Below, piece by piece: positions 1 through 60,660 of a stretch of 64,000 bases of DNA. The notes under the pieces are model-generated. The model was not told where the DNA came from. It did not search any database and was given only the letters and a program-made list of their open reading frames with translations. The position numbers were made by a program, and so were the translations under genes. Numbering within the stretch: position 1 is the first letter of the stretch; every line of letters starts with the position of its first letter. Source of the stretch: Auanema rhodensis (Eukaryota; Animalia; Nematoda); NCBI GenBank assembly GCA_964057225.1, contig OZ059900.1, positions 26,722,001-26,786,000 on the forward strand. Reading direction: 5' to 3'.

Positions 1-323
1 TCTATGAATAAGTCTAAGCATGAGATTTATGACTAAGCATATGACTAAGTCTAAGCATGAGATCTATGACTAAGTCTAAGCATGAGATCTATGACTAAGT
101 CTAAGCATGAGATCTATGACTAAGTCTAAGCATGAGATTTATGACTAAGTCTAAGCATGAGATCTATGACTAAGTCTAAGCATGAGATCTATGACTAAGT
201 CTAAGCATGAGATCTATGACTAAGTCTAAGCATGAGATCTATGACTAAGTCTAAGCATGAGATCTATGACTAAGTCTAAGCATGAGATCTATGACTAAGT
301 TTAAGCATGAGATCTATGACTAA
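1..323 (-). repeat. 25-bp telomere-variant tandem repeat (G-strand GCTTAGACTTAGTCATAGATCTCAT), ~13 copies, runs off the window start
   Basis: Unit ATGAGATCTATGACTAAGTCTAAGC repeats with a 25-bp period; it contains two degenerate TTAGGC units and grades directly into canonical GCCTAA repeats. Confidence 0.95.
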
Positions 324-338
324 GCCTAAGCCTAAGCC
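320..338 (-). repeat. Short canonical nematode telomere tract (TTAGGC)x3
   Basis: CTAAGCCTAAGCCTAAGCC on the + strand. Confidence 0.9.
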
Positions 339-474
339 ATATGGAATAACTGAACCCATATGGAATAACTGAACCCATAGGAATAACTGAACCCATATTG
401 AATAACTGAACCCATATCGAATAACTGAACCCATATGGAATAACTGAACCCATATCGAATAACTGAACCCATAT
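338..474. repeat. 19-bp tandem repeat CATATGGAATAACTGAACC, 7 copies
   Basis: Units start at 338, 357, 376 (18 bp), 394, 413, 432 and 451. Confidence 0.95.
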
Positions 475-2882: not shown

Positions 2883-2886
2883 TTTC

Positions 2887-3490
2887 GAGGACGAGCATTT
2901 TTAGTAGGACGGGGATGTCGCAGTTGGCTATAATCATCTAGCTATGTTTTATGTGGAATATATAACGTATAATTATCCACAAACACAGTCAAAAGACTGT
3001 AAAATAAAAAAGAAAAGAAAACAAATGAAAAAGAAGAATTAATTGAAAAAATATAAAAAACAAAAACAGACTTCGACCGATTAAAATAAATCACAAATAT
3101 CTTATATCAACAATTTTAGGTAAACAATTTATCTTATCACTAATCTTAGATGTGCACAGCTGATAATTCTAAATACGGTAACTGATCTTGGCAACATGCC
3201 CAAAGTTGTAACTTTGTTAGAAGTCGTCTAAATGAAAATAAGAATGTTATTCGTGCTCGTCGTTGCAAGACGAGTTCAACTGTACTACATTCATGTAGTT
3301 AACTATATAAGTATGTGATTTTATATGATATAGGTTTTATCAATATTTCACATACTTTTATGATAAATAAGTTTCAACGAAATGTACAGAGTGTTTGTGG
3401 ATAATTATACGTTATATATTCTACATAAAACATAGCTAGATGATTATAGCCAACTGCGACATCCCCGTCCTACTGAAAATTCTCGTCCTC
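2887..3490. mobile_element. Non-autonomous DNA transposon (MITE), ~600 bp with ~100-bp TIRs
   Basis: GAGGACGAGCATTTTTAGTAGGACGGGGATGTCGCAGTTGGC...CACAAACAC (2887-~2986) is the reverse complement of 3391-3490. There is no coding capacity and the TSD is not clear. Confidence 0.85.
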
Positions 3491-3509
3491 TAAATTAAAT
3501 TTTCAATTT

Positions 3510-4060
3510 TAATCAAAATATTATCATTGTTAGTACCAATATATTATGGACTTGTTCTAACAATTTAATTTCATCTTGAAAGTATTTTATTTCAGAGACA
3601 GAGATTTTTAAATTTGTAGCTATTTCAGCTTATTTTTTCTCAGCTTTGACTCTAGGTCTACAGCCAATTTTAGTATGATTTAAAATCATTTCTTGAGCAA
3701 AAGATAGAATGTTATCTATATTACTCTTAAATTTTTCAAAATTAAAAGGTAGTCTTACCTCGTTCATTTCGATATCCAGTTCCTCACTTATAATGGAGAA
3801 AAAAAATTTGATTTCTTCTCAAAATCAAAAATTAGAGAAAGTTAATAACTTTCTCATTTCTTTCTCAAATACTTCCAAAAGTTAATTAACACTTAGAAAG
3901 TGCTAAAAAAAATTTTTTTTTCCGGAGCTGTTTAAGCAAGAAAAGATAAACTTACTTACTACAGTCCTCCTTCACTTTGGTTTCTTTTAAACATAACTTG
4001 CTACTTCTGGCAAGTGAAATAAGGCCCCTTTTACATTCTTCTAACTGGGGAGAAAACACA
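3510..4060 (-). pseudogene. Degraded intron-containing coding remnant, product unknown
   Basis: The minus strand reads SEELDIEMNEVRLPFNFEKFKSNIDNILSFAQEMILNHTKIGCRPRVKAEKK*AEIATNLKISVSEIKYFQDEIKLLEQ with an internal stop. A GTAAGT...AAACAG intron-like stretch lies at ~3928-3959. Confidence 0.35.
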
Positions 4061-4131
4061 TGATACAGGCAATATACATATTAATTATGGATAAAACGGA
4101 TAAAACAAAATGGCACAGGTGGCTGATAGCA

Positions 4132-4388
4132 TTAAACAGATGAATTTAAGACCTCCATGTATTTAACTGGTGGAAGTTCACCTCTAACATCCATAGCTTC
4201 CATCTCTTTTGCGAAGATTCTATGTCGAATCGACATCGTAAAGGCCACTTGGTAATAAACTAAGTTTAGCCGGGATGCCCCATATTTATCAATTAAAGCA
4301 TTCTCTGGAAGAGAGAGGTTCATAGTCCACCTATCCTGGAGTCTTAACCTAGCCAAGTAAATGGAATCTCTAACCATCTTTTGGTCCT
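4132..4388 (-). pseudogene. 5'-truncated coding fragment (C-terminus of an unknown protein), cut at a telomere-like junction
   Basis: 81-aa ORF; the frame stays open upstream of the Met (QDQK-MVRDS) up to the GGCTTAGGCTTA junction at 4389. Confidence 0.4.
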
Positions 4389-4760
4389 GGCTTAGGCTTA
4401 ACTATCAAACTTTGGTTCAGGTATATCGAGCTTAGGCTTAATTATCGAACTCAGACTTAGGTATATCAAGCATAAAAAGCTTTTCCAAAATTAGGCTTTT
4501 TTCATCTTTGAGCTTATGCATATTCCGATTAAGGCTCATGCTTCGAGAAAGGCCTAGATTAAATCAGATTTATATTGATTTAGATTTTGTCATAAAGTTC
4601 TGGAAGAACAATCTGTACTTAATGTAATTTTCAATCTTCTTCAACAATCTACAATCTGTACTTAATGTAATTTTAATGTAATTGATGTACATCTCCAGCG
4701 AATCTCAAATAAATATCAAACTAGTTCTTGACTAAACAACAGAAGGTTTTCCCTTGACCA

Positions 4761-4960
4761 TGGAATGTTCTAGAATATTTTAGAATATTCAGGAATGTTC
4801 TAGAGTGTTCTAGAATGTTATGGAATGTTCTGGAATGTTTTAGAATATTCAGGAATGTTCTAGAATGTTCTAGAATGTTCTGGAATGTTCTAGAATGTTC
4901 TAGAATGTTTTAAAATAATCTGGAATATTTTAGAATATTCTCGAATGGAATAGAATGTTC
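4761..4960. promoter_or_regulatory. 10-bp tandem array (TAGAATGTTC) x20 forming contiguous heat-shock-element (nGAAnnTTCn) matches
   Basis: GAATGTTCTAGAATGTTC is a perfect alternating nGAAn array. Function is not shown. Confidence 0.6.
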
Positions 4961-5294
4961 CTTTTATTAATTTTGTAATAATATAGAACAATCAATAGTT
5001 ACATTATGTATTATGTAATTGCAGATTAGAAGAAAGTCTGAAGTAAATCAATAGTCACATGATGGATTTCGTAATTGTTAATCAAAAGTACATCTCAAGT
5101 AAATATCAAGTAAATCAATAGTCACATGATGGATTTCGTAATTGTTCATCAAAAGTACATCTCAAATAAATCTCAAGTAAATCTCAGACTAGATATCAAG
5201 TAAACAACAAGAGGTTTTCACTTGACCATGGAATATTCTCGAATGGAATAGAATGTTCCCTTTATTAATTTTGTAATAATATAGAACAATCAAT

Positions 5295-6280
5295 AGCTAC
5301 ATTATGTATTTTGTAATTGCAGATTAGAAGAAAGTTTGAAGTAAATCAATAGTCACATGATGGATTTCGTAATTGTTAATCAAAAGTACATCTCAAGTAA
5401 ATATCAAGTAAATCTCAAACTAGATATCATGTAAACAACAAGTAAGTCTCAAGTAAATCTCAAGTAAATCTCAAACTAGATATCATGTAAACAACAAGTA
5501 ACTCTCAAGTAAATCTCAAGTAAATCTCAAACTAGATCTCATGTAAACAACAAGTAAATCTCAAGTAAATCTCAAGTAAATCAATAGTCACATGATGGAT
5601 TTCGTAATTGTTAATCAATAGTACATCTCAAGTAAATATCAAGTAAATCTCGAACTAGCTCTCATGTAAACAACAAGTAAATCTCAAGTAAATCTCAAAC
5701 TAGATCTCATGTAAACAACAAGTAAATCTCAAGTAAATCTCAAGTAAATCAATAGTCACATGATGGATTTCGTAATTGTTAATCAATAGTACATCTCAAG
5801 TAAATCTCAAGTAAATCTCAAACTAGATATCATGTAAACAACAAGTAAATCTCAAGTAAATCTCAAGTTAATCTCAAACTAGATATCATGTAAACAACAA
5901 GTATATCTCAAGTAAATCTCAAACTAGATCTCATGTAAACAACAAGTAAATCTCAAGTAAATCTCAAACTAGATCTCATGTAAACAACAAGTAAATCTCA
6001 AGTAAATCTCAAACTAGATATCATGTAAACAACAAGTAAATCTCAAGTAAATCAATAGTCACATGATGGATTTTGTAATTGTTAATCAAAAGTACATCTC
6101 AAGTAAATATCAAGTAAATCTCAAACTAACTCTATTGTAAACAACAAGTAAATCTCAAGTAAATCTCAAGTAAATCAATAGTCACATGATGGATTTCGTA
6201 ATTGTTAATCAAAAGTACATCTCAAGTAAATATCAAGTAAATCTCAAACTAGATCTCATGTAAACAACAAGTAAATCTCA
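5295..6280 (+). repeat. Spacer of the foldback, built from 11-bp AAGTAAATCTC units and longer composite units
   Basis: Recurrent AAGTAAATCTC, CAAACTAGATCTCATGTAAACAAC and AATCAATAGTCACATGATGGATTTCGTAATTG blocks. Confidence 0.9.
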
Positions 6281-6614
6281 ATTGATTGTTCTATATTATT
6301 ACAAAATTAATAAAGGGAACATTCTATTCCATTCGAGAATATTCCATGGTCAAGTGAAAACCTCTTGTTGTTTACTTGATATCTAGTCTGAGATTTACTT
6401 GAGATTTATTTGAGATGTACTTTTGATGAACAATTACGAAATCCATCATGTGACTATTGATTTACTTGATATTTACTTGAGATGTACTTTTGATTAACAA
6501 TTACGAAATCCATCATGTGACTATTGATTTACTTCAGACTTTCTTCTAATCTGCAATTACATAATACATAATGTAACTATTGATTGTTCTATATTATTAC
6601 AAAATTAATAAAAG

Positions 6615-6814
6615 GAACATTCTATTCCATTCGAGAATATTCTAAAATATTCCAGATTATTTTAAAACATTCTAGAACATTCTAGAACATTCCAGAACAT
6701 TCTAGAACATTCTAGAACATTCCTGAATATTCTAAAACATTCCAGAACATTCCATAACATTCTAGAACACTCTAGAACATTCCTGAATATTCTAAAATAT
6801 TCTAGAACATTCCA
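6615..6814. promoter_or_regulatory. Second HSE-like array (mirror copy in the right arm)
   Basis: (GAACATTCTA)n, the reverse complement of 4761-4960. Confidence 0.6.
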
Positions 6815-7751
6815 TGGTCAAGGGAAAACCTTCTGTTGTTTAGTCAAGAACTAGTTTGATATTTATTTGAGATTCGCTGGAGATGTACATCAATTACATT
6901 AAAATTACATTAAGTACAGATTGTAGATTGTTGAAGAAGATTGAAAATTACATTAAGTACAGATTGTTCTTCCAGAACTTTATGACAAAATCTAAATCAA
7001 TATAAATCTGATTTAATCTAGGCCTTTCTCGAAGCATGAGCCTTAATCGGAATATGCATAAGCTCAAAGATGAAAAAAGCCTAATTTTGGAAAAGCTTTT
7101 TATGTTTGATATACCTAAGTCTGAGTTCGATAATTTAATATATGATAGTTAAGCCTAAGCTCGATTTACCTAAGCTAGAGTTTGATAGTTATGCCTTAAG
7201 CCAAATTTTGTTTCCATTTCAAGTGAAATTGTTTTCGAAGATTCTGGAACTTCTAGAACATTCGATAGTTTTTCAGAAAGTTCATAAACTTATTTTGATC
7301 CCGATAACTGGAACTTAAATATGCAGCAGAATCAGCAACATCAACTTCTCGCTTTCCTTTTATTTATTGCATTTTGTTTCATATTATTTTATATTATAGT
7401 AATGTAAATTACGTTTATAAATATTAAAAATTTTCTTCTTCTAGAACTTTCGATTGTTTTCCAGAAATTCATTTTTTTATTATTTCTCTTTACTGTTCCT
7501 TTATCCAAGCTTAAATCAATATTCGCGTAAGTTGCAATCGGGGGCTAAAACGGTGATGACTCAAGCGCCTTTGGCCATCCCACGGTTTCTGGGAAGATGT
7601 CGCCCAGGATAAGGCATGAATCATCCTCCTACAGCTTTAACCTTCCCACTCACAACATCTCGGGTATTCATAATCTGAACCCGCCCCCCCAAACATCTCT
7701 CTGCTTCTTTTTACCTCCTTCCGCTCCATAGTATCTTGCCTCCTCGGGTTA

Positions 7752-7760
7752 GTATATAAG
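7752..7760 (+). promoter_or_regulatory. Candidate TATA box GTATATAAG
   Basis: Matches the nematode GTATAWWAG consensus; it follows a locally GC-richer stretch and lies ~100 bp before the nucleoprotein-like frame. Confidence 0.3.
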
Positions 7761-7861
7761 CCGAGCCAATTTATCGTTTCTTCATGTGTTAAAGTATCAA
7801 CCAGTTGTGCTGCCTTCCTCCTATTCCTATCGTTCTTGTATTTTAATTTATCCTTGGCTGA

Positions 7862-8485
7862 ATAAACTTCAATGCCGAATCTTTGATTTCGGTCATAACA
7901 GAAAAATTGAATAAAGGAGGTAAGAAATCTGGGACGTTGTCAACAATAGCCGATGCCCTCAGTACTACTTCATACAGTAGGATGAAAACTACAATAGAGT
8001 ATGTCTGCGATAACCTCAAATCATCTGTACTAACCAACAAGCTTTATTTGATGGCCGTCATTCTGATTAGATTGTTATTCAAATCAGATTCTCATGTGTT
8101 GAAACAGCTGGGTTCAGAAAATCAGCAGCCCCTTTTACCAGGATTTCCAACGGTTGAACAACACAAGTTGTACCTCCTGAAAGAACAGCTCAAACCGCAC
8201 ACTCCTCTCCTCGGATATTTTCTGACTTTATGCGATGCTGCAGCGAAGTCATCTGACACGTCTGGTTTAAACAAGCCCCAAGCTGACTTTTTTGCTAGAT
8301 TTTTCAGAGTGAGGTGTGCCTACTACGGGACTACGGCAGTTTCTATTTTCATGTCCGTTAGAAGTGCGGAAATTTTCCGTTGTCCTGAGTTCAATCGTAG
8401 GCTTCTGTCTAAGATGACGAGGTCTAGCTTTCAAAAGGTTATGGTTGCCTTGAGGACGAATCAGAACAAAGATCATCCAATATAG
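7862..8485 (+). pseudogene. Endogenous viral element: rhabdovirus-like nucleoprotein internal fragment
   Basis: YLMAVILIRLLFKSDSHVLK and RCAYYGTTAVSIF...LLSKMTRSSFQKVMVALRT resemble the A-x-x-L-x-RL-x-x-KS and S-x-T-G-M-H-A-x-x-L-F blocks of plant-rhabdovirus/varicosavirus N (recalled, not searched). It is intronless, lacks an ATG at the frame start, and its 3' end is cut by the 42-bp array. Confidence 0.55.
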
Positions 8486-10114
8486 CTAAGCCTAAGCTCA
8501 AAGATCAATATCTAAGCCTTAATATAGCTAAGCCTAAGCTCAAAGATCAATATCTAAGCCTTAATATAGCTAAGCCTAAGCTCAAAGATCAATATCTAAG
8601 CCTCAATATAGCTAAGCCTAAGCTCAAAGATCAATATCTAAGCCTCAATATAGCTAAGCCTAAGCTCAAAGATCAATATCTAAGCCTCAATATAGCTAAG
8701 CCTAAGCTCAAAGATCAATATCTAAGCCTCAATATAGCTAAGCCTAAGCTCAAAGATCAATATCTAAGCCTCAATATAGCTAAGCCTAACCTCAAAGATC
8801 AATATCTAAGCCTTAATATAGCTAAGCCTAAGCTCAAAGATCAATATCTAAGCCTTAATATAGCTAAGCCTAAGCTCAAAGATCAATATCTAAGCCTCAA
8901 TATAGCTAAGCCTAAGCTCAAAGATCAATATCTAAGCCTCAATATAGCTAAGCCTAAGCTCAAAGATCAATATCTAAGCCTCAATATAGCTAAGCCTAAG
9001 CTCAAAGATCAATATCTAAGCCTCAATATAGCTAAGCCTAAGCTCAAAGATCAATATCTAAGCCTCAATATAGCTAAGCCTAAGCTCAAAGATCAATATC
9101 TAAGCCTCAATATAGCTAAGCCTAAGCTCAAAGATCAATATCTAAGCCTCAATATAGCTAAGCCTAAGCTCAAAGATCAATATCTAAGCCTCAATATAGC
9201 TAAGCCTAAGCTCAAAGATCAATATCTAAGCCTCAATATAGCTAAGCCTAAGCTCAAAGATCAATATCTAAGCCTCAATATAGCTAAGCCTAAGCTCAAA
9301 GATCAATATCTAAGCCTCAATATAGCTAAGCCTAAGCTCAAAGATCAATATCTAAGCCTCAATATAGCTAAGCCTAAGCTCAAAGATCAATATCTAAGCC
9401 TCAATATAGCTAAGCCTAAGCTCAAAGATCAATATCTAAGCCTCAATATAGCTAAGCCTAAGCTCAAAGATCAATATCTAAGCCTCAATATAGCTAAGCC
9501 TAAGCTCAAAGATCAATATCTAAGCCTCAATATAGCTAAGCCTAAGCTCAAAGATCAATATCTAAGCCTCAATATAGCTAAGCCTAAGCTCAAAGATCAA
9601 TATCTAAGCCTCAATATAGCTAAGCCTAAGCTCAAAGATCAATATCTAAGCCTCAATATAGCTAAGCCTAAGCTCAAAGATCAATATCTAAGCCTCAATA
9701 TAGCTAAGCCTAAGCTCAAAGATCAATATCTAAGCCTCAATATAGCTAAGCCTAAGCTCAAAGATCAATATCTAAGCCTCAATATAGCTAAGCCTAAGCT
9801 CAAAGATCAATATCTAAGCCTCAATATAGCTAAGCCTAAGCTCAAAGATCAATATCTAAGCCTCGATATAGCTAAGCCTAAGCTCAAAGATCAATATCTA
9901 AGCCTCAATATAGCTAAGCCTAAGCTCAAAGATCAATATCTAAGCCTCAATATAGCTAAGCCTAAGCTCAAAGATCAATATCTAAGCCTCAATATAGCTA
10001 AGCCTAAGCTCAAAGATCAATATCTAAGCCTCAATATAGCTAAGCCTAAGCTCAAAGATCAATATCTAAGCCTCAATATAGCTAAGCCTAAGCTCAAAGA
10101 TCAATATCTAAGCC
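8479..10114 (-). repeat. 42-bp telomere-variant tandem repeat, ~39 nearly identical copies
   Basis: Unit AATATAGCTAAGCCTAAGCTCAAAGATCAATATCTAAGCCTC; the G-strand contains GGCTTAG and GCTTAGGCTTAG. Confidence 0.97.
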
Positions 10115-10133
10115 CCGAATAAATTATATATAG

Positions 10134-12278
10134 AATATTTAAGGAGAATCAATACATATGTGGATACGAGACTGTAAAATCAGATGGTTTCGGAGACTAT
10201 AAATTAAGTAAGGGCGGAAAAGTGTGGGACGCGCACATTTTCAGAAATTTCTATGAGAAGGTAACTCTACTTTGTAACTCGCCTAATAGGAGGTTTTCAG
10301 AATGGGAGCAGCACCTTTTATGGATTCTCCATTAACCACTGTAAAATGCATAGCAATATTTACCTTGCGGATCTAGGTTAGACTGTTGTGAATAAATGAT
10401 ATCTACATTCATTTATATTTATATTTAAGGTTATATTACGCCGGATATCCCTCGTTTACTGTTCAGAACAAAGAAGATCATTAGAGCTGGAGACCAGCTC
10501 TGCTGGGATTACACAGGATATTCTAATACTAATAGAGTCGATTTCGGCGATTCCTATATCTGTGTGAGTTTGAATAAGAAGGTTTTCTCTATAAGTCCTA
10601 TTTCAGTTGATGAACCAAAAAAAAATTTATGAGTGCTACATTTCAACCCCCTTTTCTCTGAAATTTAACAAAAAATTCCGTTCTCCTGGAGCTATGATAC
10701 AAACTCAAGTATCATCTTATTTCGAGCCTGCCAAAAAAAAAAAAAGGAATGTCCGTGAGTTATCAAGAATTATATATATTTTAATGAGATTATCAAGGAA
10801 AATGAAGAAGTTGAGGTTGAAGAGGAGGAAGAAGAAGAGGAGGAGGCCGAAAACTGGCTGGAAACTCAGTGTGACAATCTCATTAAATCGAATTATGAAG
10901 ATGAGGACGAAGAAAAAGAAGATGAGGAGGACGAAGATGAGGAGGAGGATGCTGAGGCTCTTTTGGAAACTTTGCTGAAGGAAGCTACTAGCGAGGAAGA
11001 AGATGAAAAAGGTGAAATTTAATATGCAATAACTTTTTATAAAGATGAAACCTTCAGGCAGAAGCCCTACACACCCTAATCTGTCAGAGCTATTGAAAAC
11101 TTTCGATTTCATTACAAAGAAAGGTGATAATTAATTATTGAAGAAATAAATATTATTTTGTAGTCGATATTGAAAAACAACAAGAGGCCAACTTGATTAT
11201 TTCCTTTTTTAAGAAAAAAGAAAAAAAGGTATTACTCCCCTGATGGGGTGGTTAATCAAACTGTTTAGATGGGAGAGAATATTAGGAGAAGAATAACCCT
11301 ATGCAAGCTATCATACCCCCTTGAGCGATATAAATTCAAGAATTTCACAGAATATGAAGAGAAAGTTAGATCCCATTTGTCGGGTAAAAAACGGGAGGAA
11401 AAATTATATTATATACCCAAAAAATCTGATTCTGTTAAATCCAATGAAAGAGAGAAAGTTCTGGGTACACTTTTTTTATTAGCAGAAAATGATTTGAGAA
11501 AGGTATTACATTATCCAATATAAGTACATTAGATTTTAGAGTGTCCTCAACATGCTTGTGCTGTTGCTCCATGATACTAAGAAGGAAGAGCTCTGCGCCA
11601 GGAAACAAATGCTAGAGGTTACTGCTACGTTATGGAACATGTGGAAGAAGGTTATTTTTTCAAAAGAAGAAGAAGAAATTGACAACAGCATTAAGGAAGT
11701 CAGATTCAGGTTGAGGGAGGTAATAAAAGAGTATATATAATCATATTGTAATATCATCTCAGGAAATTAACCTTCATTCAAATAAAGAAAAAGGTCCTTT
11801 CACCTTTTTCACCTTTTACTATGCGTTTCAACGATTTTTTGTTTCCGAAATGGAAAAGTTAACATCGTGGGATGACTTCGTTATGTCTAAAGCTGAATGG
11901 AAAAAAATGGGATTGTTGATAGCGTTATCTATCAACGCATTCAACTGCTCCCGCACTGAACACTACTACAAACTGTTTGTACCTGACATTAAAAAGGTTG
12001 GTATTATTCAGAAGAAATTAATAAATAATCATAGGAAGAAGAAGAGGAGGTGATATCTTTGAATATAAGAGTTGGAAAGGGAGGAAGAAGTCAACTGCTG
12101 CTTCTACCGAAACACTATGAATATTTTTCAAGATGTTATCTCTCAGCTAGCAAACGATATGCTGTTCTTTACAAGAAAAGCAAACTGCTTTTCCCTTTCA
12201 GTCTAAGCTCGAAAAGCCTTATAACTAATTTAAAGGAAGTCTTTGACGTACCGTGGCCAATAAGTGAAGGATTCGCAG
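10134..12278 (+). pseudogene. Multi-exon SET-domain + acidic linker + tyrosine recombinase gene (Crypton-like element), 5'-truncated and broken
   Basis: Exons 10134-10260, 10301-10376 and 10430-10563 splice in frame to IFKENQYICGY...YGFSINHCKMHSNI...DIPRLLFRTKKIIRAGDQLCWDY (SET motifs NH-x and GxxLxxDY). An E/D-rich exon lies at ~10789-11011. Later exons give AFNCSRTE (catalytic R) and IRVGKGGRSQLLLLP (catalytic K). At least one in-frame stop at ~11077. Confidence 0.8.
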
Positions 12279-12308
12279 TTAGTAAAAGCATTAGTAAAAG
12301 AAAAATTT

Positions 12309-12736
12309 TCAAATAAAATTCCCTAGATACTTTGTAAAGTTATCTTCCAGTTTTGACTTTTCTAATAGCTTCTCTTTGTATTCGAATTCGAAATCTCTCC
12401 CTGCGCAATATCTCAGTTTAGTATAGCTAGCAAGGGCTGCAAATTCAAAATAAGTTCATTCCATAATTATAACCTCACCTATCATTAGATCGCTCAACCC
12501 ATATGAACTGTTTCTGATATCCATTGAATGACCTTCGGCCGTTGCCTGGAGTTCGTTGTCTCGTTCTGATCGGTTTAATTCATGGAGCTTGTCGAAGCTG
12601 TCAACAGCTTTTATAGAGCTTTGTCTATAAGAAGATCATATTATTTGGAATAATGACTACTTACCTTATAGCTGCGAATCCTTCACTTATTGGCCACGGT
12701 ACGTCAAAGACTTCCTTTAAATCAGTTATAAGGCTT
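12309..12736 (-). pseudogene. Inverted 3' portion of the tyrosine recombinase gene
   Basis: 12672-12736 is an inverted copy of 12214-12278. It continues FAAIR|QSS (40-bp intron 12625-12664) to AEGHSMDIR. Removing one A from an A-run restores GHSMDIRNSSY (H+9=Y, canonical YR spacing) and an in-frame last exon ending at TGA 12309-12311. Confidence 0.78.
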
Positions 12737-12802
12737 AGGCTTAGGCTTAGGCTTAGGCTTAGGCTTAGGCTTAGGCTTAGGCTTAGGCTTAGGCTTAGGC
12801 TT
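12731..12802 (+). repeat. Interstitial telomere tract (AGGCTT)x12
   Basis: 72 bp of perfect TTAGGC repeat. Confidence 0.98.
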
Positions 12803-13240
12803 GACAGACCACCACGATTTAGTCATCTCATATGTTTCGCTCATAACAGTCACTGTAGCTTTTGTTATCGTCTAGGACGGTTATTTCATACTAATATTGT
12901 TACAATTCTTTTCTAATTACTCATTTTATCTTGATTTAATTATTTCTATTATCTTCATACGTACTCCTTATTTCGATTTAAAATTTTATTTTATCTCTAT
13001 TTTCATCCTGATTTAATGATTTTTATTAACTTCATTTTTTTCAACTTCATCTCTTGATTCATTGTTCATTGTATCTTTTTCATTCTTCTTATCTTATTTT
13101 TCATTCTTCTTGAAAATTTTTCGAAATTAATAATTTTTTTTAGTGTCCACTCAAGATTTAGTGAAATATTTTATAATAAAATCGAACCTTAAGGTAAATT
13201 ATTTGCTTTTCTGAAATTCTGAATAATAATTTCATTCAGT

Positions 13241-13957
13241 ATGTCTTACGTGGTTCTCTTGTCCAAAGAAAAACTTCATGGAAATTCGTTTGCTTATAAT
13301 GTAGTGTATGTACACTGTGAAAAAAAAGGAATACGCAAATCCGAAAACTTCATTACTCGCGAACAATATGAAGCATTGTTGGAAAAAAACACTATCTCAG
13401 AAACATTTGATTTTTCTCAAATTGAAATGCCATTGCCAGCACAAACATCAACGAGTTTTTTTGATATTGTAGCAGATATCGAGAACAATAACTCATTCCC
13501 CGCCTGCACATCTGATGAAAGATGTTTCAGAAAATTGTTAAAATATCTAGATTTTCACTTTTTTGATTCCAAAATCTTCTCCTACGGCATATCCATTCAA
13601 GTAAAATGTAATAGTAATGTCACAATGAAAGACAAACATGCTTATACTACGAGAAAATGCAATAATATTTCGATAACATTTTTTTGTTCTTCATTTCTTG
13701 AAAAAAAGCGCGACAGTGCAAAAAAAACTGCTTTTTCATTCAGAAAAGACAAAAAAATGGAATTACTTTCGGTTATGGTTCATGAACTCATTCATGTTTA
13801 TGAATTTCTACACATAAAGTGTCTAATAAACCCAAGTATTATACCCATATCTATTGCTTCCAGTTTATTGCTAGAACACGGGGCAACTTTTTGTTCGCTT
13901 ATGAATCATATTAATCGCAGGAAAGCAAAATTTGTTTTAGAAAGATATGCACATTGA
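13241..13957 (+). CDS. SprT-like zinc metalloprotease domain protein, 238 aa, intronless
   Basis: LLSVMVHELIH (HExxH) followed by EHGATFCSLMNHIN (HG-x-x-F-x-x-x-M-x-x-IN), the SprT/Spartan/GCNA signature. A TTCAG acceptor lies just before the ATG and AATAAA is at 13976-13981. Confidence 0.8.
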   Translation: MSYVVLLSKEKLHGNSFAYNVVYVHCEKKGIRKSENFITREQYEALLEKNTISETFDFSQIEMPLPAQTSTSFFDIVADIENNNSFPACTSDERCFRKLLKYLDFHFFDSKIFSYGISIQVKCNSNVTMKDKHAYTTRKCNNISITFFCSSFLEKKRDSAKKTAFSFRKDKKMELLSVMVHELIHVYEFLHIKCLINPSIIPISIASSLLLEHGATFCSLMNHINRRKAKFVLERYAH

Positions 13958-14059
13958 TTTGTTTACTTTGAACTCAATAAATATTGTTGAAACCTCATCG
14001 TCGTATTTTTATTTTCTCAGGAACTTAATTTATACAATATTAAAATAAGAAACATGAAA

Positions 14060-17000
14060 CATTTGGAAAAACATATGACCTTTTAAATGTTGAATTTTTT
14101 GGTGATTTCAAGATTGTTTAAAACAATTTATCTCAAAATAGACACATAGAAAATGAATTGTGAGTTGATATATGAATGAAAATGGGTCATTCAACATATT
14201 ATCGCAAGGCGCTTGTTACAGGATCAATTTTGGAAAAACATATGACCTTTTAAATGTTGGTTTTTTTTTAATTTTTGGATGGCTCAAGTTTGAAAGAACA
14301 TATGATCTTTTGAATCTTGGGTTTTTTGGTGATTTTCACAATTTTTAAAATAGTTCATCTCAAAAATGACACATAGGAAATCAATCGATAGTTCATATAT
14401 GAATGAGAATGTATCATTCAGCTTACTTTCGAAAAGGGCTTGTTGTTGGCTCAAGTTTGAAAGAACATATGATCTTTTAAAAGTTCGTGGTTTTCCGTGA
14501 TTTGTACTTTTTTTATAACAGTTTATCTGAAAAATGACACACAGAAAATAGATCGTGGGTTGATATATGATACAAAATGTGTTATTCAACATAGAATCAG
14601 AGAGGGCTTGTCACTGACTCAAATTTGGAGGAACATATGAACAACTTTTATGTTATGATGAAACATGACCACAATGATCAACGTCAGATCTCATGTGTAT
14701 TTTCTCAAATTTGATTCATGGAAAAGTTCTGTTTTTCTCAAAATGTGTGAAAATAAATATGTAGAACTTAATTCCGAACGGGGCTATTATTTATTTTACC
14801 AGGAACTCATTCTATCACACTGAAACTGATTCGACTGGTTTTATCGATTGATTGAAAGAAACAGTCTCTTTTCGAGTTTCTATGTTTAAATGTTGAAAGC
14901 GTTTGAATGAACATTTTTTGATTTTTAACTTTCAACCTCAAATTTGTTATAGCAATTATATATTTTTGATAGATTCGAGAAGTTTATTTTTTTTATAAAA
15001 TGTTTCAGTACAAACTCATTTAAGAAATTTATGGAAGAACTTCTCTCATATCTACAATTTCTTTTTTCTTTATTTGACGCAATTGAGAAAATTCTTTTTG
15101 TTTCTTGAAATAATTACAAAGATTTGTGATTTGCGATTTGCCTGGTGATTTTCACAACTTTCAAAGTAGTTTATCTCAAAAATAACATACAAGAACTAGA
15201 TTGTGGGTTAATATATGGAACAAAATGTGTTATTCAACAGATTATCGCAAAATGGCTTGTTACTGACTCAAATTTGGAAGAACATATGACCTTTAAAAAT
15301 TTAGGTTTTTGGGTGATTTGCACAATTTTTAGAATAGTTTATTTCAAAAATGACACATAGAAAATATATCGTGGGTTAATATATGAATGAAAAAGTGTCA
15401 TTCAACAGGTTATCAAAAGGGGCTTGTTAATGACTGAAATTCGGAAAAACTTATGATCTCTTAAAACTCTTGGTTTTTGGTGATTTGTACGTTTTTTAAA
15501 GCAGTTTAAATCAAAAATGACACACAGCAACTAGATCGTGGGTTAAAATATGAAACAAAATGTGTTATTCAACAGATTATCGCAAAAAGCTTGTTACTGA
15601 CTCAAATTTGGAAGAACATATGACCTTTTAAAATTTGGGTTTTTGGGTGATTTGCACAATTTTTAGAATAGTTTATTTCAAAAATGACATATAGAAAATA
15701 TATGGTGAGTTGATATATAAATGAAAATGTGTCATTCAACAGATTATCAAGAGAGGCTTGTTACTTACTGAAATTCGGAAAAACTTATGATCTCTTAAAA
15801 CTCTTGGTTTTTGGGTGATTTTCACAATTTTTAAAATAGTTTAAAACTACTCCGATACAAAAAGCTTAATTCGAATTTCTTCATTTTTGAACGAAAAACT
15901 GTATACTAACTATATTTATTTAAAACGAGTAACTATATTTTTTTAAAACGAGTAGTTAAAATTTCAACTTTTTCTAATTCAGGCAAGTAGTTGAAATTCA
16001 ACTACTCCAAGATGAGTAATCTCCCAAAAAATAACATTTATACATCATTTCACAATTCAATTCGTATGTGGCATTTTTGAGATAAACTTTTTTTAAAATT
16101 ATGAAATTCACCAAAAAACCCAACATTTGAAAGGTCATATGTTTTTCCAAACTTGAGTCAGTAACAAGCCCCTTCTGATAATCTGTTAAATGACACATGT
16201 TCATTCAGATATCAACTCACAATTCAATTCGTATGTGTCGATTTTGAGATAAATTGTTTTAAACAATCTTGAAAATCACCCAAAAACCAAGAGTTTTAAG
16301 AGATCATAAGTTTTTCCGAATTTCAGTAAGTAACAAGCCTCTCTTGATAATCTGTTGAATGACACATTTTCATTTATATATCAACTCACCAAGTATTTTC
16401 TATATGTCATTTTTGAAATAAACTATTCTAAAAATTGTGCAAATCACCCAAAAACCCAAATTTTAAAAGGTCATATGTTCTTCCAAATTTGAGTCAGTAA
16501 CAAGCTTTTTGCGATAATCTGTTGAATAACACATTTTGTTTCATATTTTAACCCACGATCTAGTTGCTGTGTGTCATTTTTGATTTAAACTGTTTTAAAA
16601 AACGTACAAATCACCAAAAACCAAGAGTTTTAAGAGATCATAAGTTTTTCCGAATTTCAGTCATTAACAAGCCCCTTTTGATAACCTGTTGAATGACACT
16701 TTTCAATTCATATATCAACCCACGATATATTTTCTATGTGTCATTTTTGAAATAAACTATTCTAAAAATTGTGCAAATCACCCAAAAACCCAAATTTTTA
16801 AAGGTCATATGTTCTTCCAAATTTGAGTCAGTAACAAGCCATTTTGCGATAATCTGTTGAATAACACATTTTGTTTCATATTTTAACCCACGATCTAGTT
16901 GCTGTGTGTCATTTTTGTTTTAAACTGTTTTAAAAAACGTACAAATCACCAAAAACCAAGAGTTTTAAGAGATCATAAGTTTTTCCGAATTTCAGTCATT

Positions 17001-17196
17001 AACAAGCCCCTTTTGATAACCTGTTGAATGACACTTTTTCATTCATATATTAACCCACGATATATTTTCTATGTGTCATTTTTGAAATAAACTATTCTAA
17101 AAATTGTGCAAATCACCCAAAAACCCAAATTTTTAAAGGTCATATGTTCTTCCAAATTTGAGTCAGTAACAAGCCATTTTGCGATAATCTGTTGAA
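14060..17196. repeat. Diverged ~167-bp repeat family with a unique insert; orientation flips at ~15845
   Basis: Recurrent GGTGATTT...CAAAAATGACAC...TTCAACAGATTATC...CTTGTTACTGACTCAAATTTGGAAGAACATATGACC blocks at ~167-bp spacing; they are reverse-complemented after ~15845. Confidence 0.88.
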
Positions 17197-20100
17197 TAAA
17201 TTTCAAAGTCATGGTAACCATGACTTTGAAATTTACGTGAACTTTAATTTATGCTAATTAAATGTACACGTGATGTGCACTTGGTATGTAACTCGCTTCA
17301 CGTGAAAGATAAAGAGATGTGGTTTTCAAAATTAAATTCCTCATGTCCATATTAGTCTAAAAACAAATTTTTATTGATATTGGTTCATGGTAACCATGTC
17401 TTTGAAATTTACGTGAACTTTAATTTATGCTAATTAAATGTACACGTGATGTGCACTTGGTATGTAACTCGCTTCACGTGAAAGATAAAAAGATGCGGTT
17501 TTCAAAATTAGATTCCCCATGTCCATATTAGTCTAAAAACAAATTTTTATTGATATTGGTGCATGGTAACCATGTCTTTGAAATTTACGTGAACTTTAAT
17601 TTATGCTAATTAAATGTACACGTGATGTGCACTTGGTATGTAACTCGCTTCACGTGAAAGATAAAGAGATGCGGTTTTCAAAATTAGATTCCCCATGTCC
17701 ATATTAGTCTAAAAACAATTTTTTATTGATATTGGTGCATGGTAACCATGACTTTGAAATTTACGTGAACTTTAATTTATGCTAATTAAATGTACACGTG
17801 ATGTGCACTTGGTATGTAACTCGCTTCACGTGAAAGATAAAGAGATGCGGTTTTCAAAATTAGATTCCCCATGTCCATATTAGTCTAAAAACAAATTTTT
17901 ATTGATATTGGTTCATGGTAACCATGTCTTTGAAGTTTACGTGAACTTTAATTTATGCTAATTAAATGTACACGTGATGTGCATTTGGTATGTAACTCGC
18001 TTCACGTGAAAGATAAAGAGATGCGGTTTCCAAAATTAGATACCCCATGTCCATATTAGTCTAAAAACAAATTTTTATTGATATTGGTTCATGGTAACCA
18101 TGACTTTGAAATTTACGTGAACTTTAATTTATGCTAATTAAATGTACACGTGATGTGCACTTGGTATGTAACTCGCTTCACGTGAAAGATAAAGAGATGT
18201 GGTTTTCAAAATTAGATTCCCCATGTCCATATTAGTCTAAAAACAAATTTTTATTGATATTGGTTCATGGTAACCATGTCATTGAAATTTACGTGAACTT
18301 TAATTTATGCTAATTAAATGTACACGTGATGTGCACTTGGTATGTAACTCGCTTCACGTGAAAGATAAAGAGATGCGGTTTTCAAAATTAGATTCCCCAT
18401 GTCCATATTAGTCTAAAAAAAAATTTTTATTGATATTGGTGCATGGTAACCATGACTTTGAAATTTACGTGAACTTTAATTTATGCTAATTAAATGTACA
18501 CGTGATGTGCACTTGGTATGTAACTCGCTTCACGTGAAAGATAAAGAGATGCGGTTTTCAAAATTAGATTCCCCATGTCCATATTAGTCTAAAAACAAAT
18601 TTTTATTGATATTGGTTCATGGTAACCATGACTTTGAAATTTACGTGAACTTTAATTTATGCTAATTAAATGTACACGTGATGTGCACTTGGTATGTAAC
18701 TCGCTTCACGTGAAAGATAAAGAGATGCGGTTCTCAAAATTAGATTCCCCATGTCCATATTAGTCTAAAAACAAATTTTTATTGATATTGGTTCATGGTA
18801 ACCATGTCTTTGAAATTTACGTGAACTTTAATTTATGCTAATTAAATGTACACGTGATGTGCACTTGGTATGTAACTCGCTTCACGTGTAAGATAAAGAG
18901 ATGCGGTTTTCAAAATTAGATTCATCATGTCCATATTAGTCTAAAAACAAATTTTTATTGATATTGGTGCATGGTAACCATGACTTTGAAATTTACGTGA
19001 ACTTTAATTTATGCTAATTAAATGTACACGTGATGTGCACTTGGTATGTAACTCGCTTCACGTGAAAGATAAAGAGATGCGGTTTTCAAAATTAGATTCC
19101 ACATGTCCATATTAGTCTAAAAACAAATTTTTATTGATATTGGTTCATGGTAACCATGTCTTTGAAGTTTACGTGAACTTTAATTTATGCTAATTAAATG
19201 TACACGTGATGTGCATTTGGTATGTAACTCGCTTCACGTGAAAGATAAAGAGATGCGGTTTCCAAAATTAGATTCCCCATGTCCATATTAGTCTAAAAAC
19301 AAATTTTTATTGATATTGGTTCATGGTAACCATGACTTTGAAATTTACGTGAACTTTAATTTATGCTAATTAAATGTACACGTGATGTGCACTTGGTATG
19401 TAACTCGCTTCACGTGAAAGATAAAGAGATGTGGTTTTCAAAATTAGATTCCCCATGTCCATATTAGTCTAAAAACAAATTTTTATTGATGTTGGTTCAT
19501 GGTAACCATGTCATTGAAATTTACGTGAACTTTAATTTATGCTAATTAAATGTACACGTGATGTGCACTTGGTATGTAACTCGCTTCACGTGAAAGATAA
19601 AGAGATGCGGTTTTCAAAATTAGATTCCCCATGTCCATATTAGTCTAAAAAAAAATTTTTATTGATATTGGTGCATGGTAACCATGACTTTGAAATTTAC
19701 GTGAACTTTAATTTATGCTAATTAAATGTACACGTGATGTGCACTTGGTATGTAACTCGCTTCACGTGTAAGATAAAGAGATGCGGTTTTCAAAATTAGA
19801 TTCATCATGTCCATATTAGTCTAAAAACAAATTTTTATTGATATTGGTGCATGGTAACCATGACTTTGAAATTTACGTGAACTTTAATTTATGCTAATTA
19901 AATGTACACGTGATGTGCCCTTGGTATGTAACTCGCTTCACGTGAAAGATAAAGAGATGCGGTTTTCAAACTTAGATTCCCCATGTCCATATTAGTCTAA
20001 AAACAAATTTTTATTGATATTGGTTCATGGTAACCATGACTTTGAAATTTACGTGAACTTTAATTTATGCTAATTAAATGTACACGTGATGTGCACTTGG

Positions 20101-56100: not shown

Positions 56101-57784
56101 CATGTCTTTGAAATTTACGTGAACTTTAATTTATGCTAATTAAATGTACACGTGATGTGCACTTGGTATGTAACTCGCTTCACGTGTAAGATAAAGAGAT
56201 GCGGTTTTCAAAATTAGATTCATCATGTCCATATTAGTCTAAAAACAAATTTTTATTGATATTGGTGCATGGTAACCATGACTTTGAAATTTACGTGAAC
56301 TTTAATTTATGCTAATTAAATGTACACGTGATGTGCCCTTGGTATGTAACTCGCTTCACGTGAAAGATAAAGAGATGCGGTTTTCAAACTTAGATTCCCC
56401 ATGTCCATATTAGTCTAAAAACAAATTTTTATTGATATTGGTTCATGGTAACCATGACTTTGAAATTTACGTGAACTTTAATTTATGCTAATTAAATGTA
56501 CACGTGATGTGCACTTGGTATGTAACTCGCTTCACGTGAAAGATAAAGAGATGCGGTTCTCAAAATTAGATTCCCCAAGTCCATATTAGTCTAAAAACAA
56601 ATTTTTATTGATATTGGTTCATGGTAACCATGTCTTTGAAGTTTACGTGAACTTTAATTTATGCTAATTAAATGTACACGTGATGTGCACTTGGTATGTA
56701 ACTCGCTTCACGTGAAAGATAAAGAGATGCGGTTTTCAAAATTAGATTCCCCATGTCCATATTAGTCTAAAAACAAATTTTTATTGATATTGGTGCATGG
56801 TAACCATGACTTTGAAATTTACGTGAACTTTAATTTATGCTAATTAAATGTACACGTGATGTGCACTTGGTATGTAACTCGCTTCACGTGAAAGATAAAG
56901 AGATGCGGTTTTCAAAATTAGATTCCCCATGTCCATATTAGTCTAAAAACAAATTTTTTTGATATTGGTTCATGGTAACCATGTCTTTGAAATTTACGTG
57001 AACTTTAATTTATGCTAATTAAATGTACACGTGATGTGTACTTGGTATGTAACTCGCTTCACGTGAAAGATAAAGAGATGCGGTTTTCAAAATTAGATTC
57101 CCCATGTCCATATTAGTCTAAAAACAAATTTTTATTGATATTGGTTCATGGTAACCATCACTTTGAAATTTACGTGAACTTTAATTTATGCTAATTAAAC
57201 GTACACGTGATGTGCACTTGGTATGTAACTCGCTTCACGTGAAAGATAAAGAGATGTGGTTTTTAAAATTAGATTCCCCATGTTCATATTAGTCTAAAAA
57301 CAAATTTTTATTGATATTGGTTCATGGTAACCATGACTTTGAAATTTACGTGAACTTTAATTTATGCCAATTAAATGTACACGTGATGTGCACTTGGTAT
57401 GTAACTCGCTTCACGTGAAAGATAAAGAGATGCGGTTTTTGAAATTAGATTCCAAATGTCCATATTAGTCTAAAAACAAATTTTTATTGATATTGGTTCA
57501 TGGTAACCATGTCTTTGAAATTTACGTGAACTTTAATTTATGCTAATTAAATGTACACGTGATGTGCACTTGGTATGTAACTCGCTTCACGTGAAAGATA
57601 AAGAGATGCGGTTTTCAAAATTAGATTCCCCATGTCCATATTAGTCTAAAAACAAATTTTTATTGATATTGGTGCATGGTAACCATGACTTTGAAATTTA
57701 CGTGAACTTTAATTTATGCTAATTAAATGTACACGTGATGTACACTTGGTATGTAACTCGCTTCACGTGAAAGATAAAGAGATG
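17197..57784. repeat. 176-bp satellite DNA array, ~230 monomers, very homogeneous
   Basis: TTTGAAATTT recurs at 17225, 17401, 17577 and onward (period 176); monomer CATGGTAACCATGACTTTGAAATTTACGTGAAC...TTGATATTGGTT. Confidence 0.99.
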
Positions 57785-58674
57785 AATGGAAATGTGCATA
57801 TTGGTGCTGGAATCGCTACGCATGCCTATGTTGTTCCCGAAAACTTGAAATATGTGAATTACTCGTGAGTTGTTTTTCATTTATGCTGATGTATTATATG
57901 TGCTTTTCAGTACTGCTGTGAAAGGTTTTGTACAATTTGGAGAACTGAAGTTAAGAATTTCGGATCTTGCCGGACCTCTTCTGAATGCTGTCAATCTTGC
58001 TACTGTTGCGACTGCCAGTTATGCTGCAACTCCTGCTGATGTCACACTTGTTTTTGGATGTGCCCTATCTACTGGATTAAGTTCTTGGAATGAAAATGGA
58101 CCGATACGCGAGATGAATGCCGAGGAACTCAAGAGTTTGGAGAAATACTTCCGTGTAGCTGATGGGGAGAAGATCTTTGATGAAGTTGTGCACACCTTCC
58201 TCGTGCCTGCGGGTTTTTCACCTGCAATGTATGCTGAATCAGTGAAAGTGATGATCGCGGGAAAGCTACAGTGGTGGACCACGGGACATCACTTAGGATC
58301 TGTACGGACTGAAAAAGCTGGGGACGAAACGAGAAGAACCGGATATTTATGGAAAGTGCTGAGAGAGTCAACATCATGGACCGATATTTCATCTTCAACG
58401 AATCTGATCCTTCTTCATGCAGCGCTCCATTTCTGTGACACGAGGAAAGTAATGAAAACCATAACCGGATCTGAGAAAATTAGGATTCAATTCGACCAAA
58501 TTGTTCCTATAACTACTGGAGGAGACGTAAGGATTAGGATTGCTCCATACGGTGCCGGAGCGAAAAGATGGGTGAATTCTTATAAGTCATGCACTGCAAT
58601 GAAAGCATCCCCAGTCATCTACTTTCTTGATCGGATCTTACAAAATGACATTGTTGACGTCCTCAATTATGGGC
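57782..58674 (+). pseudogene. Endogenous viral element: qinvirus-like nucleoprotein fragment with one 46-bp intron (57865-57910)
   Basis: KLQWWTTGHHLG, ALHFCDTRKVM and DVRIRIAPYGAGAKR match the order of the K-x-N-W-W-x-x-N-H-H-x-G, H-W-x-S-T and D-x-x-L-R-x-x-x-x-P-A-G-T motifs I recall for Qinviridae N. GTGAGT...TTTTCAG splices exon 57782-57864 in frame (YVNYS|TAVKGF). It is bounded by the satellite at the 5' end and by TTAGGC at the 3' end. Confidence 0.68.
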
Positions 58675-58800
58675 TTAGGCTTAGGCTTAGGCTTAGGCTT
58701 AGGCTTAGGCTTAGGCTTAGGCTTAGGCTTAGGCTTAGGCTTAGGCTTAGGCTTAGGCTTAGGCTTAGGCTTAGGCTTAGGCTTAGGCTTAGGCTTAGGC
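58672..58800 (+). repeat. Interstitial telomere tract GGC(TTAGGC)x21
   Basis: Perfect repeat directly fused to the coding frame (...LNYG|LRLRLR). Confidence 0.98.
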
Positions 58801-59780
58801 AAGCGTGATTCAGAAACATGGTGGGGGCTCGCCGCCCCCACACCCCCGCTTGCTTCTGGCTCAGATACTATTACGACAATTTAGTGTTCACATGGTTACA
58901 CGGTATGGCCACAATGTGTATATCATCTTAAGTGTGGTACGAGTATCACAATTCATTCATTTCAGGAATCGTATGCTATAATTAAGATTGGGGGCTAGCC
59001 GCCCCCACACCCCCGCTTTCTTCTGCTTCAAATACTATAAAGTCAATTTACTGTTCACATGCTTACGCGGTATGGCTATAATGTATATATCATCTTAAGA
59101 GTGGTATGATTATCAGAATGTTATACATCAAAACTCGTATGGCCACAATGTATATATCATCTTAAGAGTGGTATGATTATCAGAATGTTGTACATCAAAA
59201 CTCGTATGGCCACAATGTATATATCATCTTAAGTGTGGTATGATTATCAGAATGTTGTACATCAAAACTCGTTTGGCCACAATGTATATATCATCTTATC
59301 CCAAAAACAAAGCTTCTTCAGCGGTATCCATGCGGATTTTATAAAAAATCTCGCTGCGTTGCCCTAAATTGTACAGGAGAAACATACAAAGCATGACGGA
59401 CGCTTCTCGGAGCATAATTTTTTTTTCCTGAAAATAAAACTTCAAGATTAAGAAAAAAATAGCATTACGTCTTCAGAGCTTGTTTCTTCATAGGTCGAAA
59501 GAAAATTCTGGAGACGAGGATGGGCAAAACATCGGAATTTCCTATAAAGCATATAAAACGTAGGGAGCGTGGTAGCCATTTTCGATAAAGTTTTTTCTTT
59601 ATTCAGGCCCTCAAAGTTGAAGAATTTTGATAACTAGTGCTTGGTGAATTACCGGTTCAACAATTTTCCTTATTCTTTTAATGACTTTAGTCGACCTATG
59701 AAGAAACAAGCTATGAAAACGTAATGCTATTTTTTTCTTAATCTTGAAGTTTTATTTTCATGTTTTTCTGAATCACGCTT
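58801..59780. mobile_element. ~1-kb non-coding element with terminal inverted repeats, sitting between convergent telomere tracts
   Basis: AAGCGTGATTCAGAAA at 58801-58816 and its perfect reverse complement at 59765-59780. Inside are two GGGGGCT(C/A)GCCGCCCCC hairpin blocks (~58823, ~58990), ~66-68-bp tandem units (~59070-59299) and a nested ~70-bp inverted repeat (59429-59498 / 59691-59760). Confidence 0.7.
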
Positions 59781-59819
59781 GCCTAAGCCTAAGCCTAAGC
59801 CTAAGCCTAAGCCTAAGCC
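59781..59819 (-). repeat. Interstitial telomere tract (TTAGGC)x6 on the minus strand
   Basis: (GCCTAA)6GCC on the + strand. Confidence 0.98.
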
Positions 59820-60660
59820 ATCCAGGACACTTCTTCCGAATAAACAGCTTGAGCTGCACTACATGCCGCTTGTTGATAACGCAAGTGGGGCTTGTCGGTA
59901 GTAGCCTTCCAGACATACCACCCCCAGTCATCCAACTCATAGAATGTCCTAGCCGCTTGAGCGCCTAAAGCTACACTATGGCAGTAAGCCAAAGTTCCCA
60001 TAAACAATTCGATTGCCGTTTCAGAATGGCACATATCCAGCGTGGGAGAGGCTTCATTGGTTACTTGAAGGCTCAGGGAGCTGAAGAAATTACACAGTGG
60101 TTTTCTAAACTTGGGCTTTGGGAATACGGTGGCCAAGGGAGTAAGATAAGAAGGCACAGCAAATAGAATCATCCCACTCTCGGGGTGTCTTCTCAAGCGC
60201 TGGTTGGCGAGCAGAGCAGCATGTTGCCGCCCATATTCGCATTGAAGGCCGTAGCCTAACATTCCTGCTAGTTGTAGCACGGTAGTCTTCCAGTTATCAG
60301 GTGAGAGCGTGGTGAACCCTGCGCGACGCACCAGATCTTGTGGCAGAACATCAGCTGGCTGGTCATTACCAACAGCAAGCTCGTTGAAAAGCCTGTCGTC
60401 AATAATTATCAGCACAGCGGCTCGCCCATTGTCGCCAATCAGTTCAGGGACGTACACTCGATTAGCCAACGGATCAAGGTTAACTACTCCCTCCAGAGGT
60501 GGGGTGTTAACAGAGACGCGCTGGTCAGGGTGAGCAGCAAGCAAGGTGTAAGCGGCGAAAGCCGAACTCCATGTAAGGCCAGTCTTCCTGAGCACGATTG
60601 TAGCTCCTGGACTACAGGCATTGCCTGCCAAAAGATTGCGCATGTTTTGGTTCATTGGAA
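59813..60660 (-). pseudogene. GC-rich intronless coding fragment (~280 codons), probable endogenous viral element, possibly toti-like capsid
   Basis: Uninterrupted frame at roughly 50% GC in a very AT-rich background. It is cut by the 167-bp repeat family at the 5' end and by TTAGGC at the 3' end (the stop comes from the telomere repeat). The family call rests only on loose resemblance (LLAAHP...P; W..TVLQLAGMLG..QC..G). Confidence 0.45.

Follow-up and report, generated by a model that had tools for sequence, protein, structure and literature searches.

A doubly truncated qinvirus-like nucleocapsid fragment with a candidate spliceosomal intron between satellite and telomeric repeats in nematode DNA

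Results

Layout of the locus

The window, by which we mean the whole 64-kb stretch of DNA that was analyzed, consists largely of one satellite: a 176-bp repeat in 230.6 copies occupies positions 17209-57784, about 40.6 kb. Directly behind it, on the forward strand, lies a fragment of a nucleocapsid (N) gene related to those of the qinviruses. The fragment comprises a 5'-truncated exon 1 of 26 codons plus a split codon (57785-57864), with the motif NGxxxxG at its start, a candidate U2-type intron of 46 nt in phase 2 (57865-57910) whose splicing we infer from its sequence, and an exon 2 of 253 open codons (57911-58671). Exon 2 covers positions 60-251 of the 423 positions of the family profile, and the C-terminal part of N is missing. 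The 3' cut is made by 21.5 copies of TTAGGC (58672-58800, forward strand), whose G-rich strand is directed away from the N fragment, as in an added telomere. The reading frame of the fragment continues through this tract and meets a stop at 58806-58808.

Further along the window follow a 980-nt element bounded by inverted repeats (58801-59780), lying beyond both telomere tracts; a mirror tract of 6.5 copies of GCCTAA (59781-59819, reverse strand); a second open stretch capped by that tract, which we call fragment B (59820-60631, reverse strand, 270 open codons); and a 167-bp satellite. The inverted-repeat ends of the 980-nt element are perfect over 19 nt when the adjoining GGC is counted, and its interior holds 67- and 167-nt repeats together with a nested 70-nt inverted pair at 59429-59760. 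Both telomere tracts point at this element, which is the opposite of the orientation at linear chromosome ends. TTAGGC repeats and short introns that end in TTTCAG are nematode traits. The N fragment is RNA-virus-derived sequence that stands in DNA between host flanks (satellite on one side, TTAGGC repeats on the other), as in a non-retroviral endogenous viral element (EVE).

Exon 2 is a divergent homologue of qinvirus nucleocapsid proteins

A first-pass annotation, made from the sequence of the window alone, had called the gene a qinvirus-like nucleoprotein, and profile searches bear this identity out. Exon 2 scored 51 bits on a profile of four isolate-type S-segment proteins and 59 bits (E 7e-20) on a profile of 21 full-length homologues. 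Three of the four isolate-type proteins could be named by exact look-up, namely the nucleocapsid of Shahe qinvirus-like virus 1 and the proteins of Xinzhou nematode virus 3 and Wuhan insect virus 15; the contigs of these named S-segment proteins measure 1.6-1.9 kb, as the ICTV profile gives for S segments (PMC10721934). Single pairwise comparisons with the isolate-type S proteins gave E-values from 9e-11 to 4e-6, and identity to qinvirus N proteins in local alignments was 20-31%. The best pairwise matches were tied, between the N protein of Xinzhou nematode virus 3 (48.9 bits) and that of the family locus L058 (49.3 bits).

The homologues derive from a motif scan that returned 57 loci, 4 viral and 53 metagenomic; 26 of them scored above 40 bits on the family profile, 20 of those in-sample. 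Because the homologues had been picked by this motif, we masked it in a control, and exon 2 then scored 21.7 bits, whereas none of the reported shuffles (748 of 1000) exceeded 7.7. A search of 1.84 billion representatives gave two hits. One (P0002) is a member of the family, and the other (P0001), a 3083-aa repetitive subtilase, was rejected as spurious.

Searches of exon 2 against Pfam, NCBIfam and PDB sequences gave no significant match, and the named qinvirus N proteins are likewise without a Pfam hit. In a word-based homologue search exon 2 found no match, and P0002 and the two-sequence alignment matched themselves only; no locus was recovered when peptide patterns from exon 2, P0002 or both together served as queries. 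The structure models had mean pLDDT values of 35.0 and 36.8, were unusable, and gave no Foldseek match at E <= 0.001. We consider the Foldseek list from such low-pLDDT models to be noise and discount the protein of Xinzhou nematode virus 3 that appears in it at rank 29 (E 3.1). The ESM Atlas was uninformative for exon 2 (best score 0.78).

In a tree of 25 rows, from which 31 non-family loci, the partial loci L007, L012 and L049, and L058 were excluded, the window protein sits on a very long branch (4.34) in no starred clade, and we claim no sister group for it. The branch of the Xinzhou nematode virus 3 protein is as long (4.57). Judged from its sequence, exon 2 is a divergent homologue of the N proteins of the Qinviridae.

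Exon 1 and the truncated ends

That exon 1 is part of the same gene, as had been proposed, is the most likely reading. It opens with the family motif NGxxxxG, which is found near the N-terminus in 20 of the 21 homologues, and its 12-mer ranks first among the 16,914 stop-free six-frame peptides of the window (64 of 20,000 shuffles reach its score). On a 12-column matrix built from 17 of the 21 homologues (four near-duplicates were removed), exon 1 scores 12.0 bits, within the leave-one-out range of 8.9-31.5, and the read-through frame has nothing above 0. On matrices of 18 and 24 columns the scores of exon 1 fall to 3.9 and -4.3 bits, below every leave-one-out member, and the full-profile alignment stops short of exon 1 (59.7 vs 59.0 bits, 9 of 1000 shuffles). 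The pairwise gain from exon 1 is clear against the Shahe protein (0 of 300 shuffles) and P0002 (1 of 300), smaller against the Wuhan protein (14 of 300) and L058 (51 of 300), and absent against the Xinzhou protein. The NG motif lies 144 residues from the core motif; the family range is 98-195, with a median of 114.

The first-pass annotation placed the gene at 57782-58674 and took it to be a truncated copy. The truncation holds, while the ATG at 57782-57784, which had been read as the start, closes the 176-bp satellite in register: of the 179 occurrences of the 16-mer that finishes in this ATG, one continues into the gene. All 21 homologues carry 10-74 residues ahead of the NG motif, and the copy is therefore truncated at its 5' end. 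The methionine of the fragment would then be either satellite-derived or a 3-nt microhomology. With about 280 codons, compared with 376-538 aa for the full-length N ORF in the homologues, the copy is doubly truncated and probably dead, and a functional N product is improbable.

The 46-nt insert is very probably an intron

The insert at 57865-57910 has the properties that were first attributed to it. It starts with GTGAGT, ends with TTTTCAG and has a GC content of 30%, lower than the 40% and 44% of exons 1 and 2. Unspliced, the frame of exon 1 terminates one codon into the insert; once the 46 nt (3n+1) are taken out, the two exons share one frame through the split codon. Both exons are free of stops, and the ends of the fragment are its sole lesions, in agreement with the earlier description of a gene without other damage. 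The TTTTCAG consensus and a short length are typical of nematode introns, and the insert combines all the features of a nematode U2-type intron (GTRAG donor, TTTTCAG acceptor, short, AT-rich and frame-restoring).

On both strands of the 64 kb, the strict pattern GTRAG..(30-55 nt)..TTTYCAG matches at this place alone. A looser intron pattern yields six further candidates of 37-66 nt in 1-17200. There are 12 in-frame GT-AG pairs, of which this one alone has both consensus sites, and a frame-restoring pair of this type arose by chance in 315 of 100,000 shuffles of 57821-58022. The frame of exon 2 is also open backwards through the insert to 57858, with no in-frame ATG; the 18 read-through residues before exon 2 matched 1 of the 21 homologues at p<0.05 and gave no convincing family match. 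We considered and dropped a reading of TTTTCAG as a trans-splice acceptor, since the family motif lies upstream in another frame. Taking the signals of the insert and the mixed evidence on exon 1 together, we regard it as very probable that the insert is a real spliceosomal intron, one whose splicing is predicted from these signals. Among the sequencing runs listed for the stretch none was RNA, and three small runs guessed to be RNA gave no match to it, which speaks neither for nor against splicing.

The insert might instead reflect an ordinary indel or insertion that shifted the frame where N is variable, or exon 1 might be unrelated filler, in both cases with splice signals that arose by chance. 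Such a reading could appeal to the homology of exon 1, which resides mainly in some 12 residues and weakens across longer blocks, to the spacing between the NG and core motifs, which exceeds the family median, and to the open exon-2 frame within the insert. It would nonetheless have to ascribe to coincidence that consensus sites, typical length, AT-richness and frame restoration all occur together, which few of the shuffles reproduce, and that the splice pair has the window's best match to the N-terminal motif on one side and the core match on the other. The real exon 1 also outscores its shuffled versions against the Shahe N protein and P0002, with the smaller advantage noted above against the Wuhan protein and L058, and we consider it improbable that the insert is anything other than an intron. 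More improbable again are an assembly chimera at this locus and membership of the protein in a cellular family. A chimera is suggested by the position of the junctions next to a 40-kb satellite and telomere repeats, but the stretch is present in sequencing runs, guessed to be DNA, beyond the possible source samples. Nine runs guessed to be DNA, from three studies, contain all or part of it, and two of the nine may be its source: run X3, from the same study as the possible source, holds 0.97 of the words of the stretch, run X4 of a second study holds 0.78, runs X5, X6, X7 and X9 hold 0.21-0.48, and X8 of a third study has a 276-nt contig identical to the window at 58008-58283. As for a cellular family, which the first-pass annotation had named as one outcome that would overturn its view, Pfam, NCBIfam and PDB offer none and the named viral N proteins match.

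Telomere tracts, fragment B and other features of the window

The junction between the N fragment and the TTAGGC tract reads GGC. This junction and the orientation of the tract are compatible with telomere healing, under a viral and a host origin of the intron alike. The layout of fragment B is the mirror image of that of the N fragment, with satellite, sense strand and then TTAGGC; its GC content of 51% lies within a region of about 30% GC. The junction of fragment B with its satellite, a repeat like the 167-bp satellite, is also at an ATG. Searches for homologues of fragment B found none, and the ESM Atlas gave hypothetical proteins only, with low recognition. By our own impression fragment B is reminiscent of a dsRNA-virus capsid.

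Elsewhere in the window, a second internal TTAGGC tract of 12 copies (12731-12802) starts where one arm of a near-perfect inverted duplication ends. In the other arm (12200-12270) AGGCTT is already present, as it should be if telomerase primed on an end that resembled a telomere. A gene fragment at 10208-10606, which by eye we take to resemble a SET-domain C-terminus, contains three short intron-like pairs (37, 40 and 43 nt) in the host style of intron. Open frames of 205-244 codons at 467-1726, 7862-8482 and 13223-13954 have no Pfam hit above the cut-off; the last includes HELIH, presumably a zinc metalloprotease site.

A second family locus with candidate introns

Among the family loci, the qin-like N gene of L047 (1-2969) is interrupted by AT-rich GT-AG inserts, two at 906-989 and 1684-1791 and a third at 481-545. 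The first two (84 and 108 nt) are multiples of three and keep the frame. A further, less certain insert begins at 691. The N halves of L047 combine into one profile match (positions 9-361), the second half running for 392 codons to the end of the contig. The contig opens with an A/C-rich leader, like the named qinvirus segments: 24 of its first 25 nt are A or C, more than in any other window of that contig, and AAACACG occurs within the first 40 nt of L047, L002, L038 and L040 (4 of 20 contigs). On these sequence features L047 is a candidate for either an intron-bearing qinvirus segment or a host gene. The positions of its introns differ from that of the intron studied here, and the tree does not group it with the window protein.

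The split loci L007, L012, L037 and L049 have no clear intron; L007 and L012 resemble broken copies. L032 carries an intact, uninterrupted qin-like N ORF of 444 aa (79-1410, reverse strand) on a contig of 64,551 nt and is likely an EVE in another organism. The termini of L002 and of L058 are complementary, as in complete negative-strand segments.

Origin of the intron

The first-pass annotation concluded that the viral gene had gained its intron after endogenisation and that the truncated copy had therefore moved as DNA. The former does not follow as stated, because negative-strand viruses, including yue-like viruses of nematodes, carry introns themselves. Four yue-like viruses of the soybean cyst nematode are described with 1-10 read-supported GU/AG introns in RNA1, and two of the four with introns in RNA2 as well; the same account gives no BLASTN hit for these viruses in Heterodera assemblies (PMC12770441). 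A rhabdo-like virus is reported to have three AU-rich introns of 98-132 nt, and the report refers to another, of 76 nt, in a Culex rhabdovirus (10.1101/2022.10.18.512700). Within the qinvirus N family, L047 may be a further case of introns borne by a virus. The movement as DNA is not supported either: the intron would persist in cDNA made from genomic or antigenomic RNA that has not been spliced, so it cannot decide between transfer as DNA and transfer as cDNA, and consequently it says nothing about how TTAGGC was added.

The annotation had itself named a nuclear-replicating virus that splices as the alternative. A virus that splices now looks at least as likely as gain in the host. We favor, at about even odds, the view that the intron of the truncated N copy was already present in viral RNA and that the copy was captured from that RNA before splicing. 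The source would be a qinvirus of nematodes that relies on the spliceosome of its host, so that the intron is found in genome and antigenome and is lost in mRNA only. Unspliced viral RNA may then have been copied by the reverse transcriptase of a host retroelement; on a negative-sense genomic template, sense cDNA would extend from a break in the satellite, with the 3-nt ATG overlap, toward the C-terminus. Telomerase would have added TTAGGC to the free 3' end, which would afterwards have been joined to the inverted-repeat element. One point against capture of this kind is that no retroelement turned up next to the N fragment.

The competing explanation is that an intronless qinvirus N gene was endogenised long ago, became a host gene and gained the intron there, and that a fragment of this gene was copied as DNA into a satellite break and capped by telomerase; it predicts the same satellite and telomere junctions as viral capture. 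Some of the evidence points this way. Full-length N is one uninterrupted ORF at 21 of 22 family loci (20 profile loci and L058, against one with introns; five further loci are partial or broken), and in the account of PMC12770441 introns are given for yue-like viruses only and none for the two nematode qin-like viruses. The same source reports a hypothetical protein of Nippostrongylus brasiliensis (WKY10110) as the best hit of a qinvirus RNA2 protein, that is, an N-like gene annotated in a nematode. The GC3 of the two exons (0.35 and 0.38) is below that of the named qinviruses (0.49-0.61) and falls inside the range of the four longer non-repeat ORFs in 1-17200 (0.28-0.44), which is host-like; it is also inside the range of the metagenomic homologues (0.30-0.48). 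The size and signals of the intron agree with those of the host-like candidates in the window, as both a viral and a host origin would predict. The very long branch of the window protein, the lack of a close viral relative and the single family hit among the 1.84 billion representatives could reflect life as a host gene, but because a viral protein, that of Xinzhou nematode virus 3, has an equally long branch, a long branch does not imply domestication. L047 would add support if it is a host gene.

Gain in the host requires two rare events, domestication and the gain of an intron inside a viral coding region, whereas an intron of viral origin needs only a feature already reported in nematode negative-strand viruses. 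In planthopper EVEs described with exon-intron structure, the viral part lies wholly in the last exon (PMC10636211), so intron gain within viral coding sequence would not be usual either, and such descriptions suggest that EVEs seldom have introns within their viral part. That the copy is undamaged apart from its ends also fits a viral origin of the intron. We view domestication followed by intron gain as a possible but doubtful account, and the antiviral role suggested in the first-pass annotation as conjectural. With somewhat more confidence, though short of even, we tentatively propose the following wider picture: some qinviruses replicate in the nucleus and bear host-type introns in N; the locus is a germline fossil of unspliced RNA captured at a break and capped by telomerase; L047 is a living segment of such a virus; and fragment B is perhaps a second capture.

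Discussion

Implications

Qinvirus EVEs are already known, a fragment of the RNA-dependent RNA polymerase (RdRp) having been described from an ant (PMC6540820), and introns in negative-strand viruses are known but rare. In our literature search, outside which most subscription journals lay, neither qinviruses nor their EVEs were reported to contain an intron. The ICTV lists the replication of qinviruses as unknown (PMC10721934). If the intron came with the virus, it would point to nuclear transcription of qinviruses and would add the Qinviridae to the groups with spliceosomal introns, namely yue-like, orthomyxo-, borna- and a few rhabdo-like viruses. An intron-bearing DNA fossil would further mean that viral introns have the age and stability needed for endogenisation. 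Introns in EVEs are often taken as a sign of domestication (PMC10636211, where this view is expressed), and this inference fails where the virus itself splices. If the intron was gained in the host instead, the locus would record a rare intron gain inside an RNA-virus coding region, and there would be a virus-derived host gene in a nematode still to be found. Should fragment B be viral, a second viral RNA may have been captured in the same way.

Comparison with known systems

The N fragment resembles the S-segment N proteins of the Qinviridae, the nucleocapsid fold of which is related to that of mononegaviral N (PMC10721934), in its homology at profile positions 60-251, with the core KxxWWxxxHHxG and the downstream GYxxK and DxRxR positions, and in its N-terminal NGxxxxG. 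Unlike the Shahe, Xinzhou and Wuhan proteins, it is cut at both ends, lies in chromosomal DNA, is interrupted by an intron and falls outside any supported clade; each of the four isolate-type S segments has one uninterrupted ORF. The Qinviridae have a two-segment negative-sense RNA genome with a polymerase of the qinvirus clade on the L segment, whereas the virus considered here is known from a DNA fragment of N alone.

The soybean cyst nematode viruses SCNYV1a, 1b, 2 and 3, as presented in PMC12770441, are the closest parallel for the intron: they are nematode negative-strand viruses with canonical GU/AG introns in their genes, including those of the small segment. They are assigned to the Goujianvirales, not the Qinviridae, their RNA2 proteins are reported without a significant database hit, and no DNA form of them is recorded there; the sequence in the window, in contrast, is DNA and matches qinvirus N. 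As an RNA-virus gene fragment in animal DNA, the locus is like the planthopper ToEVEs described in PMC10636211 and the ant qinvirus RdRp EVE described in PMC6540820. In the ToEVEs the viral sequence is given as lying inside the last exon, whereas here the intron is inside the virus-derived coding region, and the flanks are satellite and telomere repeats instead of a host gene.

TTAGGC is the telomere repeat of Ascaris and Oscheius, and the junction is like the de novo TTAGGC additions described for Ascaris and Oscheius tipulae (PMC10980081) in that the tract stands directly on unique DNA with its G-rich strand outward. The GGC at the junction is the priming triplet given for O. tipulae in that work, and here it may be template or repeat. 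Unlike the Ascaris and O. tipulae additions as described there, the tract is internal and faces a second tract across the 980-nt inverted-repeat element.
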